NCBI GenBank assembly: GCA_046759165.1
Contig: JBHIBS010000076.1
Span: 1-5,048, forward strand
Length of the DNA: 5,048 nucleotides
Source of the DNA: a bacterium
GTDB lineage: Bacteria > UBA6262 > WVXT01
Direction: 5' to 3'
Positions 1,076-4,911 of this stretch are shown here, in pieces. Made by a program: the position numbers and the translations under genes. Below the pieces are notes generated by a model. The model was not told the origin of the DNA. It ran no database searches and worked only from the letters and a program-made list of their open reading frames with translations. The first letter of the stretch is position 1; each line of letters starts with the position of its first letter.

Positions 1076-1900
1076 ATGGCTAAGAAAGTGCTTATTGTGG
1101 ATAGCGATATTGATGCTAGGTTCTTAGTGAAGGTACATTTGAGAAGATTCGATGTTGAGTTTATCGAAGCCAGAGATGGAGAGTCGGGACTGGAACTCGC
1201 CCGGTCGCAGAAGCCAAACTTAATTGTGATGGATTATGTTCTGCCCAAGTTGAGCGGTTACGAAATGGTGAAGAGAATTCGGAAAGATGAAGCTACCAGA
1301 GGGGTCCCCATAATTATAGCTACAATAGCCGGGTTCAACTTGCAGATGAAGGAATTGAATATTGTGGAGTATCTTCCCAAGCCCTTCTCTCGAGCACAAT
1401 TCTTAAGAGCGGCGAAGAAAGCATTGGGAGAGATGCGCCTCAAAAGAGAGGAAACTAGACCAATCTCTACAGGTGCTGAAACTCCAAAGGGAGTGCCTCT
1501 CCCCAAACAGAAAGTGGAGGCTCCAGCCAAAATGGAAAAGATTGTTGTAGCTGATGACGAAGAAAATGTGAGAGAGTTACTGAAAAATTTACTTAAAGAT
1601 AGATATCGAATAATTCTGGCTAGAGATGGGCTGGAGTTGGTAGAAAAAGTCGAAAAAGAGAGACCGGACTTAATCATCTGTGATGTGATTATGCCCGGGA
1701 AGAGCGGTTATAAGGGGATTAAGAAATTGAGGGAAAAGCCTGAATTTCTCAACCTGCCAGTAATCTTCAATTCGGGCGTAGTTAAAGATAGAGAGTTATA
1801 CGAGACCTTAAAGCCAGAAGGACCGAGCTATTTCATGCGCAAGCCGTTCGAAAAGAAGGTCCTTTTAGAAAAAATAGAAGAAATGTTGAATAAAAAATAG
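1076..1900 (+). CDS. Response regulator with two tandem receiver (REC) domains and no output domain
   Basis: REC1: KVLIVDSD...PNLIVMDYVLPKLSG...IIIAT...YLPKPF. REC2: KIVVADDE...PDLIICDVIMPGKSG...VIFNS...FMRKPF. They are joined by a Pro/Lys-rich linker. Purine-rich RBS (AAGGGATAAGAG) upstream, 10 nt after the previous stop. Confidence 0.9.
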   Translation: MAKKVLIVDSDIDARFLVKVHLRRFDVEFIEARDGESGLELARSQKPNLIVMDYVLPKLSGYEMVKRIRKDEATRGVPIIIATIAGFNLQMKELNIVEYLPKPFSRAQFLRAAKKALGEMRLKREETRPISTGAETPKGVPLPKQKVEAPAKMEKIVVADDEENVRELLKNLLKDRYRIILARDGLELVEKVEKERPDLIICDVIMPGKSGYKGIKKLREKPEFLNLPVIFNSGVVKDRELYETLKPEGPSYFMRKPFEKKVLLEKIEEMLNKK

Positions 1901-1923
1901 CTTGTTTATCGCTCAAGAATCTC

Positions 1924-1952
1924 TTGACGCCAAAATCTTCACAAACTATCTT
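1924..1952 (+). promoter_or_regulatory. Putative sigma70-type promoter
   Basis: TTGACG (1924-1929), 17-nt spacer, TATCTT (1947-1952), in intergenic DNA upstream of the tRNA-Arg gene. Predicted start ~1959-1960. Confidence 0.55.
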
Positions 1953-1992
1953 TCAAACGGCAGGAGTGGCGGAGCGACAGTTCCGCGCCAAC

Positions 1993-2020
1993 GTAGGGGT
2001 TCGATTTATCGAACCCTTTT
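1993..2020 (+). repeat. GTAG-tagged palindrome (REP-like); also shaped like an intrinsic terminator
   Basis: GTAG (1993-1996) is immediately followed by the perfect inverted repeat GGGTTCGAT (1997-2005)/ATCGAACCC (2008-2016), then TTTT. Only one copy is in the window, so repeat status is inferred from the architecture. Confidence 0.45.
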
Positions 2021-2071
2021 CCAAACCCTCTTGGTTTGCTTTCGCTAAGGCAGAAGAATTGATATAGTTAT

Positions 2072-2143
2072 GGGCTCATAGCTCAACGGAGAGAGCACAG
2101 GGTTGCGGACCCTGGGGTGAGGGTTCGATTCCCTCTGAGCCCT
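2072..2143 (+). tRNA. tRNA-Arg(GCG)
   Basis: Full cloverleaf: acceptor GGGCTCA/TGAGCCC, D arm GCTC-AACGGAGA-GAGC (A20 Arg identity element), anticodon arm CAGGG-TT[GCG]GA-CCCTG (anticodon 2105-2107), T arm GAGGG-TTCGATT-CCCTC. CCA not encoded. Confidence 0.95.
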
Positions 2144-2163
2144 TAAATTCATAGGGATTGGGC

Positions 2164-2610
2164 GTGAAGATTTTCTTAATCTTTGCAAATGGGATATGTG
2201 CCGGATGGGCGGGGCTCGTATTCCTCTATTTTCTTAAATACAATTTCATTTCCTGGGCTATGGTGGATGTCTCTTCCATCATCCAGCTCTTTGCAGTATT
2301 TGCTCTAATCTTCGGGAAGAGAATATTAATGAATATTTCCATCCCTTTCCTTCTATTCTATGGAACAGAGGGATTTTTTGTTTACAATTGGTCTTTAAGG
2401 ATGATTCCTGCCCAGATAAGCCGCTCCATAATGGTCCTGACAGCTCTCTATATTATCTACCTTATGATTACGCGCTGGGAGATAGGGAAGTTGGCCATCG
2501 GGATTATGCTCGGAATTATACTCTTTGTACCATTTAGAATATGCGAGACTTACTATTTGAAGACCCATCCAGAAGTTAAGAGTTATTTCGAATTTTTTGA
2601 GGGTAAGTAA
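2164..2610 (+). CDS. Hypothetical integral membrane protein (~4-5 TM segments)
   Basis: Hydrophobic ORF filling the gap between two tRNAs. GTG at 2164 has AGGGA (2153-2157) 6 nt upstream, so it is preferred over the ORF-track TTG at 2158. Stop TAA at 2608-2610. No family recognised. Confidence 0.7.
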   Translation: MKIFLIFANGICAGWAGLVFLYFLKYNFISWAMVDVSSIIQLFAVFALIFGKRILMNISIPFLLFYGTEGFFVYNWSLRMIPAQISRSIMVLTALYIIYLMITRWEIGKLAIGIMLGIILFVPFRICETYYLKTHPEVKSYFEFFEGK

Positions 2611-2615
2611 TTTAT

Positions 2616-2703
2616 GGAGAGATGCCGGAGTGGTTGAACGGGGCGGTCTCGAAAACCGCTATCCCGATTTTTGGGATCGGAGGTTCGAATCCTCCTCTCT
2701 CCG
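2616..2703 (+). tRNA. tRNA-Ser(CGA)
   Basis: Acceptor GGAGAGA/TCTCTCC, discriminator G, D arm CCG...CGG, anticodon arm GCGGT-CT[CGA]AA-ACCGC (anticodon 2650-2652), long variable arm ATCCC...GGGAT, T arm GGAGG-TTCGAAT-CCTCC. CCA not encoded. Confidence 0.97.
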
Positions 2704-2841
2704 TTTGATTCACAGGAAGGATTCGAAGCGAGCGAGCGCCGAGGTCACCCGAGGAGGAGCGAAGGATGAGCGGCAGCGAGTGAGCCGGCTCTGAGGTTCT
2801 GGGAGGAAGGGGAGAACCGAAGAGGAATCCTCCTCTCTCCG
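2704..2841 (+). repeat. tRNA-linked structured repeat, module A copy 1 (ends in a duplicate of the tRNA-Ser(CGA) 3' end)
   Basis: 31-bp exact direct repeat at 2687-2717 and 2825-2855 (GAATCCTCCTCTCTCCGTTTGATTCACAGGA), period 138 bp. The body 2704-2824 aligns without gaps to 3779-3899 (about 95/121 identical by hand count). Confidence 0.9.
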
Positions 2842-2864
2842 TTTGATTCACAGGAGGGGTCGCT

Positions 2865-2934
2865 GGAGCGACGAGTAAGGAGCTCCGCCTTAGCGACGGG
2901 CGCGAGACGGTGAGCGCCCCGGGTCCGAAGCGAA
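2865..2934 (+). repeat. Structured repeat, module B copy 1
   Basis: 70 bp, 65/70 identical to 3944-4013. Hairpins GGAGC/GCTCC (2865-2886) and GGGCGC/GCGCCC (2898-2919). Confidence 0.9.
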
Positions 2935-2953
2935 TGAGTGGGGGAGGAATAGG

Positions 2954-3676
2954 ATGAGAAGCGGCGCAAAAAATTTCTTAATCCCATTTTTTACTTCTAT
3001 TCTTGTTTCGGCACTGGTCTGTTTTCTTTTCTTTCTTTACGGCATCCCCTTTCTGGAGAAGGTGGAAGTGCCGGATGTGAGGAGGGCAACCCTTAACCAA
3101 GGCAGGCTTATTCTGGAAAGTAGAAGACTTTTCTTGCTTGTGGAGTCCGAAAGAGAAGACCCCTCTATTCCTCAAGGCTCAATTATCAATCAGAGTCCTC
3201 TTCCAGGCTCTGTTGTCAGAAGAGGCACACCGATAACCGTTGTGCTCAGTAAGGGTAAGAAGGTGCTGGCTATCCCCAATCTCTCCTCGGTTCCCCTGGA
3301 AGAGGCACGCAGGAGATTAGAGGAGATGGGGCTTAGAGTGGGTAGTATAACCAAGCAGCTTTCCGATTCTATTGCCAAGGGTTCCATAATTTCCACCTTT
3401 CCTTCTCCCAATTCAATAGTGAAAGAAGGGACAATAATAGACCTCATCTTGAGTAGAGGCAAGGAGGAAATTGTCGTGCCCAATGTTCTTGGCAGAAGGT
3501 TAGGAGCAGCAAAGGGGATTTTAGAGAGGGCGGGCTTGAAAGTAGGTCAGATAGACTATGTATGCGATATAGAGAAATTATTCGATATCATTTTGGGGCA
3601 AAATCCGAGGCCCGGAAAGAGAGTCCCTATATCGACACGTGTGAACCTTACCATAAATGCTGAAGAGGAAGAATGA
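2954..3676 (+). CDS. PASTA-domain membrane protein (N-terminal TM plus three PASTA repeats, no kinase domain)
   Basis: GGAGG RBS at 2943-2947. N-terminal hydrophobic helix. Three repeats: VEVPDVRR...GSIINQSPLPG...VVLSKG, AIPNLSS...GSIISTFPSP...LILSRG and VVPNVLG...ILGQNPRPG...VNLTIN. Confidence 0.92.
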   Translation: MRSGAKNFLIPFFTSILVSALVCFLFFLYGIPFLEKVEVPDVRRATLNQGRLILESRRLFLLVESEREDPSIPQGSIINQSPLPGSVVRRGTPITVVLSKGKKVLAIPNLSSVPLEEARRRLEEMGLRVGSITKQLSDSIAKGSIISTFPSPNSIVKEGTIIDLILSRGKEEIVVPNVLGRRLGAAKGILERAGLKVGQIDYVCDIEKLFDIILGQNPRPGKRVPISTRVNLTINAEEEE

Positions 3677-3690
3677 CAGGAGAGTCCGAT

Positions 3691-3777
3691 GGAGAGGTGT
3701 CCGAGTGGCCGAAGGAGTACGCCTGGAGAGCGTATGAACGGGAAACCGTTCCGTGGGTTCGAATCCCACCCTCTCCG
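3691..3777 (+). tRNA. tRNA-Ser(GGA)
   Basis: Acceptor GGAGAGG/CCTCTCC, discriminator G, D arm TCC...GGA, anticodon arm TACGC-CT[GGA]GA-GCGTA (anticodon 3725-3727), variable arm GAACGG-GAAA-CCGTTC, T arm GTGGG-TTCGAAT-CCCAC. CCA not encoded. Confidence 0.97.
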
Positions 3778-3916
3778 GTTTGATTCACAGGAGGGATTCG
3801 AAGGCCGCGAACGCCGACCTTGTGGGAGGAAGAGCACTGGAAGTGCGGCAGTGAGCGGGCAGGCTCTGAGATTCTGGGAGTGAAGGGAGAACCGAAGAGG
3901 AATCCCACCCTCTCCG
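3778..3916 (+). repeat. tRNA-linked structured repeat, module A copy 2 (ends in a duplicate of the tRNA-Ser(GGA) 3' end)
   Basis: 17-bp exact direct repeat GAATCCCACCCTCTCCG at 3761-3777 and 3900-3916, period 139 bp. The body is homologous to 2704-2824. Confidence 0.9.
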
Positions 3917-3943
3917 AGAAAAAGGGGTCAGAGTCATTTTTTA

Positions 3944-4034
3944 GGAGCGACGAATAAGGAGCTCCATGTTAGCGACGGGCGCGAGATGGTGAGCGCCCCG
4001 GGTCCGAAGCGAAGGAGCGCCGAGGTCATCCGAG
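3944..4034 (+). repeat. Structured repeat, module B copy 2, running into a partial module A
   Basis: 3944-4013 matches 2865-2934 (65/70). 4005-4034 matches 2724-2753 (27/30). Confidence 0.85.
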
Positions 4035-4059
4035 AAAAAGCGCGGAGGGAGACAGTAGA

Positions 4060-4911
4060 ATGGGTAAGAAAAAGAGTGTCCTTGATTTTTGTAAGATGAA
4101 AAAAGGCAGAGAAAAGATTACATTTCTCACATGTTATGATTATCCTACTGCTACTTTTGCTGAGAAGGCTGGTTTAGATATGCTTTTGGTTGGCGATTCG
4201 TTGGGTATGGTTGTTTATGGATATGAAGGTACCATACCAGTAACAATGGAGCAGATGATTGTTCATGCAGAAGCTGTCCGCAGAGGAGCTCCCAATACCT
4301 TTGTTATTGGCGACATGCCATTTATGTCATACCAGGAATCTGTAGATAAGGCAATATATAATGCCGGGAGATTTTATAAAGAAGCAAATGTGGATGCTAT
4401 CAAACTTGAAGGTGGAAGGAGAGTAATTAATCAAATTAAAGGGATTGTAGATGCAGGAATGGTACTAATGGGACATATTGGCTTGACTCCTCAAAGTTCA
4501 GGTCAGTTAGGAGGATTCAAAGCTCAGGGTAGAACTGCTAAGAGTGCTATGGAGTTAATTTTGGATGCGAAGGCGATTGAGGAAGCAGGTGCTTTTGCTA
4601 TTTTGCTTGAGGCTATACCGCCAGAGGTAGGAAAGATTATCACAGAAAGAAATCAGATACCTGTTTTAAGTATTGGCGCAGGAATTGATTGTGATGGTCA
4701 AGTGCTGATTGTTGGTGATATGTTAGGATTGTCTGAAGCATTCACTCCTAAATTTGTGAAGAAATATGCTTCTTTGAGTAATGATATTACAAAAGCATTT
4801 AGGGAATATATACAGGATGTAAAGGAAGAGAAGTTTCCAGAAGAGAAACACGTATACAAAATGGAACCAGGTGAGAGAGAAAAACTTGAGGAATTGGTCT
4901 CAGACATATAA
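4060..4911 (+). CDS. panB: 3-methyl-2-oxobutanoate hydroxymethyltransferase (ketopantoate hydroxymethyltransferase)
   Basis: Hallmark motifs LTCYDY, LLVGDSLGMVVYG, GDMPFMSY, AIKLEGG, MGHIGLTPQS, GGFKAQGRT, IGAGIDCDGQVL and PKFVKKY. GGAGGGAG RBS upstream. Confidence 0.98.
   Translation: MGKKKSVLDFCKMKKGREKITFLTCYDYPTATFAEKAGLDMLLVGDSLGMVVYGYEGTIPVTMEQMIVHAEAVRRGAPNTFVIGDMPFMSYQESVDKAIYNAGRFYKEANVDAIKLEGGRRVINQIKGIVDAGMVLMGHIGLTPQSSGQLGGFKAQGRTAKSAMELILDAKAIEEAGAFAILLEAIPPEVGKIITERNQIPVLSIGAGIDCDGQVLIVGDMLGLSEAFTPKFVKKYASLSNDITKAFREYIQDVKEEKFPEEKHVYKMEPGEREKLEELVSDI

Follow-up and report, generated by a model that had tools for sequence, protein, structure and literature searches.

What places the same short non-coding body, followed by a copy of the tRNA's own 3' end, behind two different tRNA-Ser genes of one contig? 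The window analysed here, 5,048 nucleotides of DNA, is the entire contig C76 of a 1.89-Mb bacterial genome (G000, an assembly 92% complete), and its open reading frames encode a FecR-domain protein, a response regulator, a membrane protein, a PASTA protein and PanB. A first-pass annotation had read the pair as a tiny element family that inserts at a fixed T-loop register, takes on the host tRNA sequence and is mobilised in trans. Repeats of this kind, the TLRs of E. coli, have been known since 1978. [quoted passage not shown] Egan & Landy 1978 and Rudd 1999 are cited there for these repeats, which include the 178-bp repeats of tyrT (rtT).

Anatomy, junction and covariation of the units

The two bodies (2704–2824 and 3779–3899) align without gaps and are identical at 95 of 121 positions (78.5%), as first described, while 20,000 shuffles gave a mean of 35 and a maximum of 54. 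The periods are 138 at Ser(CGA) and 139 at Ser(GGA), and both distal copies indeed begin at TTC^GAAT, that is at T-loop position 57, directly after TTC. The exact 17-nt copy of the tRNA end reported for both loci was found at Ser(GGA) (3761–3777 = 3900–3916) and not at Ser(CGA), where the exact repeat is 31 nt long (2687–2717 = 2825–2855) and continues through the spacer. The nearby tRNA-Arg carries neither unit nor duplication, in agreement with the first description. An element absent from that description is an antisense T-arm in each unit (2718–2727 and 3793–3802), which perfectly complements the T-arm of its own host. A unit begins with the 3' part of the tRNA and runs through a spacer, the antisense T-arm, the three-way domain and the right-end hairpin up to the distal copy:

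2072–2143: tRNA-Arg(GCG), anticodon GCG (ARAGORN)
2615–2704, plus strand: tRNA-Ser(CGA) (ARAGORN, Rfam), T-loop TTC at 2684–2686, host of unit A
2687–2824, plus strand: unit A, 138 bp, in which the 3' part of the tRNA (position 57 onward) is followed by spacer, antisense T-arm, structured body and right-end hairpin
2718–2727, plus strand: antisense T-arm of unit A, exact complement of 2684–2693; DNA fold z -2.73 (2684–2728)
2728–2785, plus strand: three-way domain of unit A, supported by covariation and made up of a stem of 6 bp, a tandem GA/GA and two hairpins, one of which has a GGA loop
2789–2824, plus strand: right-end hairpin of unit A, stem, GA/GA, stem and purine loop, its last base pair abutting the junction
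2825–2855, plus strand: distal copy at CGA, the last 17 nt of the tRNA followed by 14 nt of spacer
2856–2938, plus strand: dispersed hairpin repeat, separate from the unit (BLAST)
3690–3778, plus strand: tRNA-Ser(GGA) (ARAGORN, Rfam), T-loop TTC at 3758–3760, host of unit B
3761–3899, plus strand: unit B, 139 bp, anatomy as in unit A
3793–3802, plus strand: antisense T-arm of unit B, exact complement of 3758–3767; DNA fold z -2.98 (3758–3803)
3803–3860, plus strand: three-way domain of unit B, other alleles of the modules of unit A, supported by covariation
3864–3899, plus strand: right-end hairpin of unit B, with mismatches in the inner stem
3900–3916, plus strand: distal copy at GGA, 17 nt, the tRNA-Ser(GGA) 3' end
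3917–3943, plus strand: another dispersed repeat, 22 matches
3944–4042, plus strand: second copy of the dispersed hairpin plus a fragment of unit body

The distal copy at 2825–2855 may be the stub of a decayed second unit. No terminator-like site was found across 1880–4100. The stretch 2687–2854 occurs as one piece, without other letters, in contigs of three public runs of one study, an agreement that speaks for consistency only since one of these runs may be the source of the window itself.

Other dispersed repeats stand after each unit (about 2856–2938 and 3917–4042). The hairpin repeat 2856–2938 has 32 BLAST matches in G000, of which 27 are over 400 nt away from any tRNA. This dispersed hairpin (2856–2938, 3944–4017; about 30 copies) often replaces or interrupts unit bodies in relatives. 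The repeat 3917–3943 also flanks a Y1-transposase-family gene behind tRNA-His (C4:49726–50486).

The antisense arm exactly complements the host TTCRARTCNN at Ser(CGA), Ser(GGA), Ser(TGA), Leu(GAG) and Glu(CTC), and with one G–T pair at Gln(CTG). All nine arm pairs are kept in 12 of 12 distinct alignment rows, four of them having changed on both sides. The GAA of the arm faces the TTC, which is present only in the intact tRNA gene. The RNAalifold structure of 13 units (12 distinct), limited for this count to the 5' and middle helices, is 96.7% paired with compensatory changes in 11 of 23 pairs; none of 500 shuffles reached this and slid registers gave 25–43%. Because the structure was derived from the same, related rows, this score is to be taken as support rather than as a probability.

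The sequence of the right-end hairpin differs among Ser, Gln, Leu, Trp, Glu and Asp units while its stems are kept, and between its end and the junction there is 0–1 nt; the parser could not handle the Ser(TGA/GCT) ends. An automated count found it in 44 of 61 cases (shuffle mean 19.9, maximum 30), but roughly a dozen chance matches to tRNA fragments, and redundant rows, are counted among these, and we relied on the table of hairpins and not on the ratio. A badly designed right-end pattern run over 12 genomes matched the control as often as the real sequences. The three-way domain alone (2728–2785), folded as DNA, does no better than shuffles (z +1.63), nor does the whole 346-nt precursor fold better than shuffles (z 0.27). 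GNA triloop hairpins, which are very stable in DNA, are enriched on the sense strand only (36 against 15.5, maximum 26), and GNRA tetraloops are somewhat raised (21 against 11.5, maximum 23). Together, these data establish the anatomy of the units, the covariation and the fixed junction.

Distribution in the host lineage and beyond

The units form an element family, as had been proposed, and not merely a pair: 11 tRNA loci of the host's taxonomic family carry a right end and a 3' copy in at least one genome. In G000, full units stand at 4 of 40 tRNAs (Ser(CGA), Ser(GGA), Gln(CTG) and Leu(GAG)), with two units and a decayed third at Gln(CTG). At Glu(CTC) and Ser(TGA) the antisense arm alone remains, and a further contig has a unit with a Leu(CAG) copy. 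The T-arm/antisense pattern and model R1 each match all nine family genomes and none of the three other class members.

Empty orthologous alleles, which the first-pass annotation had asked for, exist at Trp in G000 and at Ser(CGA) in G003. The tRNA-Trp locus is precisely empty in G000 and filled in G001, G002 (two units), G003 and G008; the panB tree is more simply explained by a loss in G000. At Ser(CGA) the 138-bp unit is present in none of the seven relatives examined (the G002 contig ending about 70 nt past the tRNA), and G001 has instead a 486-bp form carrying a four-helix-bundle gene (TIGR02436). At Ser(GGA), where no orthologue could be recovered from G002 and G003, four of five relatives have the 3' copy, with periods of 117–138 and bodies partly replaced by other palindromes. 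Near-identical tandem units occur at Gln in G000 and at three further loci (L195, L196 and L203). Eighteen metagenome loci, two of them from overlapping stretches, comprise 138-bp CGA units, tandem pairs and a form of about 1.2 kb whose cargo is an MntA-like gene pair, the first gene with a sub-threshold MntA match. The cargo forms have the junction of the unit and its last junction bases. Behind tRNA-Asn in G000, right ends with 3' copies lie about 3.0 and 6.4 kb downstream with genes between.

Three loci show other arrangements. At the tRNA-Trp of G006 (L241), a repeat interrupts the first copy at the T-loop; after it come a unit end and the beginning of a second tRNA-Trp copy. A tRNA-Gly(CCC) (C85:143–255) has a 21-nt 3' copy with a period of 35 nt and no body. 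In G008 (C6; L027), a 2.16-kb block with tRNA-Arg and tRNA-Ser(CGA) stands twice in tandem.

The first-pass annotation had supposed that a unit acquires the sequence of its host whenever it jumps. The comparison of genomes does not show this: both ends form tRNA-specific subfamilies that are kept across genomes, and the modules of the middle part are reshuffled among loci.

A pattern scan of GTDB genomes found a cognate 3' duplication (at most one mismatch in 15) at 100 among the 120 matches listed, two of the 100 being units of the studied family itself. A tRNA was called at 95 of these 100 loci, again among the matches listed, covering 15 amino-acid types with 38 Ser. Bacterial record titles among the matches listed name Omnitrophota, Planctomycetota, Desulfuromonadales, spirochaetes, Firmicutes, Patescibacteria and Elusimicrobia; archaeal ones name Thermoplasmata, Nanoarchaeota, Halovenus, Poseidonia and Methanosarcinales. 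Since most of the arm is fixed and the period restricted by the scan pattern itself, evidence can be drawn from positions 57, 63 and 64 alone. Among the matches listed, base 57 of the copy equals that of the host at 93 of 100 loci, free position 63 pairs at 78 of 100 (shuffle 44.8, maximum 59) and free position 64 at 61 of 100 (shuffle 27.0). After collapsing these matches by isotype and T-stem, pairing holds in 41 of 50 (position 63) and 32 of 50 (position 64). Model R1 scores many bacterial units at 40–69 bits and includes parts of the T-arm, so that homology of the bodies across phyla is likely rather than demonstrated. The layout of the unit thus recurs in many bacterial phyla and some archaea. 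These results establish the empty, tandem and cargo alleles and the wide distribution of the units.

How the units may spread, and rival explanations

We tentatively read the units as gene-less selfish cassettes that may be copied into the T-loop at TTC^R by an enzyme encoded elsewhere, most probably a small GIY-YIG nuclease, a reading to which we give nearly, though not quite, an even chance. The empty, tandem and cargo alleles, the distal decay and the fixed junction fit such a cassette. That empty alleles can arise by loss alone counts against insertion. On a single sense strand, the antisense arm would fold back on the T-loop and mark the site, and the right-end hairpin would mark the other end of the unit. 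A nick followed by repair synthesis or recombination could then add a unit next to the tRNA, pushing older units outward, where they would decay. Recombination between the direct repeats would lose or double units; each tRNA would keep its own end sequences and gene conversion would move middle modules between loci.

Circumstantial evidence makes the small tRNA-hugging GIY-YIG nucleases the best candidate helper. PF01541 has 99 matches in 38 unit-bearing genomes; 70 were fetched and six with long frames set aside, leaving 64. Of these small GIY-YIG matches, 25 have a tRNA no more than 350 nt away and always on the same strand; the rough expectation is 1.4, assuming 45 tRNAs in 2 Mb, and the genomes were picked for their units without a control set. 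Partial tRNA copies break at T-loop 55–57 at five GIY-YIG loci (L273, L278, L282, L283 and L308); other GIY-YIG cassettes break in the D-arm, in the anticodon arm or at 61. None of the GIY-YIG cassettes seen has the antisense arm and right-end hairpin inside, and the G000 assembly contains no small GIY-YIG gene. A nuclease between tRNA and partial copy, the mark of a GIY-YIG/tRNA cassette, is lacking from the units, and only the T-loop register is common to both. For such cassettes the literature consulted offered no published family.

At tRNA-Met, a small GIY-YIG gene lies between a 5' copy and the full gene in G007 (L278), G008 (L283), G002 (L295) and G001 (L267). The 5' copy stops at T-loop 55/56 and its anticodon arm is replaced by a palindrome. 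In G002 this cassette is apparently tandem across an assembly gap, and the tRNA-Met site of G000 holds an integrase fragment instead. At L274 and L308, one and the same tRNA is preceded by a GIY-YIG cassette and followed by a TLR-like stretch.

It is a bolder and rather unlikely extension that TLRs in general would be cross-domain, gene-less mobile cassettes, targeted by the antisense arm and moved by miniature GIY-YIG nucleases, with toxin–antitoxin-type cargo in polar arrays resembling integrase-free integrons, and with CsrA loops where the host has CsrA.

The units could alternatively be a structured RNA kept by the host and cut from the tRNA precursor, the tail serving as processing site, the antisense arm refolding the precursor and the loops binding CsrA in some lineages. 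Strong covariation on the sense strand speaks for this, as do the TLRs of rRNA operons, which are processed and bind Hfq and CsrA, use of the repeat by RNase E having been proposed (PMC8144298). Moreover, a CsrA-type hairpin (motif from PMC4005645) is present in 12 of 17 units from CsrA-positive genomes versus 3 of 33 from CsrA-negative ones (Fisher p 1.6e-5), in a comparison of 50 of the 100 host genomes whose assemblies are incomplete and whose kin are not independent. The link of CsrA loops to CsrA, the raised GNRA tetraloops and TLR processing (PMC8144298) point to selection on the RNA. By analogy with the RrA/B/F reports and the TwoAYGGAY proposal, the CsrA link suggests that some lineages may use the unit RNA. 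Against the host-RNA explanation, the junction persists where bodies are swapped, as they often are, for unrelated palindromes, close relatives differ in having or lacking units, and the 19 TLRs of tRNA operons score below 0.01 as CsrA binders (PMC8144298). CsrA was found in none of the 12 genomes of the host's class, which rules out a CsrA sponge in the host lineage. As to a CsrB/RsmZ or TwoAYGGAY sponge, marked by a stem with an A(N)GGAN loop in a CsrA-bearing host, the GGA of the unit is kept and lies off the consensus given in PMC4005645. We consider a host RNA an improbable explanation of the units.

A tyrosine integrase acting in trans, the helper favoured by the first-pass annotation, would make the unit a minimal integrative element with a crossover in the T-arm, possibly as a folded single strand like the attC of integrons. 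An intact tRNA with a 3' fragment is the signature of such elements, and a crossover in the T-loop or at the junction is standard for them (PMC4383910). The distal copy, too, can pair through its first bases with the antisense arm, and both the cargo forms and the tRNA-Asn array look like cassettes. In that array (C22:13801–20300), tRNA-Asn is followed by modules of genes and by two distal right ends, each with a 3' copy, with no recombinase seen between; its cargo genes are presumably an AbiE-like pair, CBS, PTS and antiporter genes. The distance between the two arms varies from 26 to 49 nt, a misfit with the core sites of integrases, which are duplex. The earlier remark that no integrase lies in the window holds more widely: none of 60 open reading frames downstream of units is a recombinase, and the unit body is in none of 30 integrase-family loci fetched. 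BLAST found no unit copies in phages or plasmids; among viral contigs the full pattern is absent and the half pattern occurs 33 times, nine of them at a tRNA and none with the duplication. Excised circles, looked for in contigs only, were not observed: no joint skips the GGA unit, and the 31-nt CGA repeat hides excision from 31-letter graphs. The variable arm distance and the lack of linked recombinases and of phage, plasmid or viral copies speak against an integrase, which we regard as quite unlikely.

Still less probable is that an HUH transposase (Y1 or IS91-like) moves the unit as single-stranded DNA, nicking at the hairpin bases. The hairpin-bounded ends, the pairing of the antisense arm across the cut site and the presence of Y1 genes in 9 of 12 class genomes would suit such an enzyme, and IS91 targets GTTC. 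To our knowledge, HUH enzymes normally leave no duplication; no unit body lies within 1.5 kb of the 12 Y1 loci fetched, and the single Y1 locus beside a tRNA is flanked by the repeat 3917–3943 and not by a unit, so that the REP/REPIN–RAYT arrangement is not seen here. No reverse transcriptase was found in G000.

Neutral local duplications homogenised by gene conversion would agree with the shuffling of middle modules between loci and with their occurrence away from tRNAs, but the fixed junction, the cognate antisense arm and the compensatory changes in many phyla contradict them, and the covariation counts largely refute this explanation.

Comparison with TLRs and other known systems

Our preferred reading, a selfish cassette copied into the T-loop, has to be set beside what is known of similar repeats. 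Like the TLRs of E. coli, the units stand directly behind a tRNA, one to several per locus and also in tandem, and end in a 3' copy of that tRNA which runs 17 nt to the gene end (31 nt at CGA; CCA is not encoded). Re-reading the K-12 loci Tyr, Lys, Ser(GGA), Pro and Arg revealed a cognate antisense arm, a hairpin body and a T-loop junction there too. Unlike in E. coli, where the copy starts at 58/59 and periods are 98–181, it starts at 56/57 in the studied units, their periods are 137–143, and cargo-bearing forms were seen. The Rfam family RtT (RF00391, cut-off 45 bits) has no match in G000, G004, G042, G053 or the window and 15 sites in K-12, and model R1 does not recover the tyrT units. By their hallmark the units are therefore TLRs, of a different sequence family. 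Thus, of the possibility that the body belongs to a family already described, the layout bears it out and the body does not, no Rfam family matching it: over the window and the 18 metagenome loci, Rfam gave tRNA and sub-threshold matches only. In the literature consulted, we found no TLR-like units outside enterobacteria, no antisense arm and no GIY-YIG link, part of which Rudd 1999, Williams 2002 and Bosl & Kersten 1991 may cover.

The multi-hairpin TwoAYGGAY RNAs (RF01731; bioRxiv 10.64898/2026.09.22.753630) are similar in their Csr/Rsm-type loops and mobile-like variation in copy number; unlike the units, they are not described as tRNA-linked in the part of that report available, and they have no Rfam match in the window or the 18 loci. 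Rfam sX4 (RF02223) likewise has a tRNA-Ser followed by a stretch pairing back onto the T-arm; it scores 34 bits where the cut-off is 70, and the tRNA part accounts for almost all of this. The rttR region is enriched in mobilome sequencing, which its authors read as RNA/DNA hybrids (10.1101/2024.07.17.603846).

Islands integrated at tRNAs (Islander; PMC4383910) share with the units the intact tRNA, the displaced 3' fragment and the site at T-loop or junction. To be listed by Islander, an island must contain an integrase gene and measure at least 2 kb; the units, with their 0.14 kb, are gene-less and structured, and have no linked integrase. A duplicated tRNA 3' end need not, then, signal an integrase island, and standard island finders drop such elements by size. 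With the filled, empty, tandem and cargo alleles that the host lineage offers at its orthologous tRNAs, a structure backed by covariation and a candidate enzyme, the TLR question becomes testable. The units are a real family of structured TLR-type cassettes, a variant of a known but unexplained kind.
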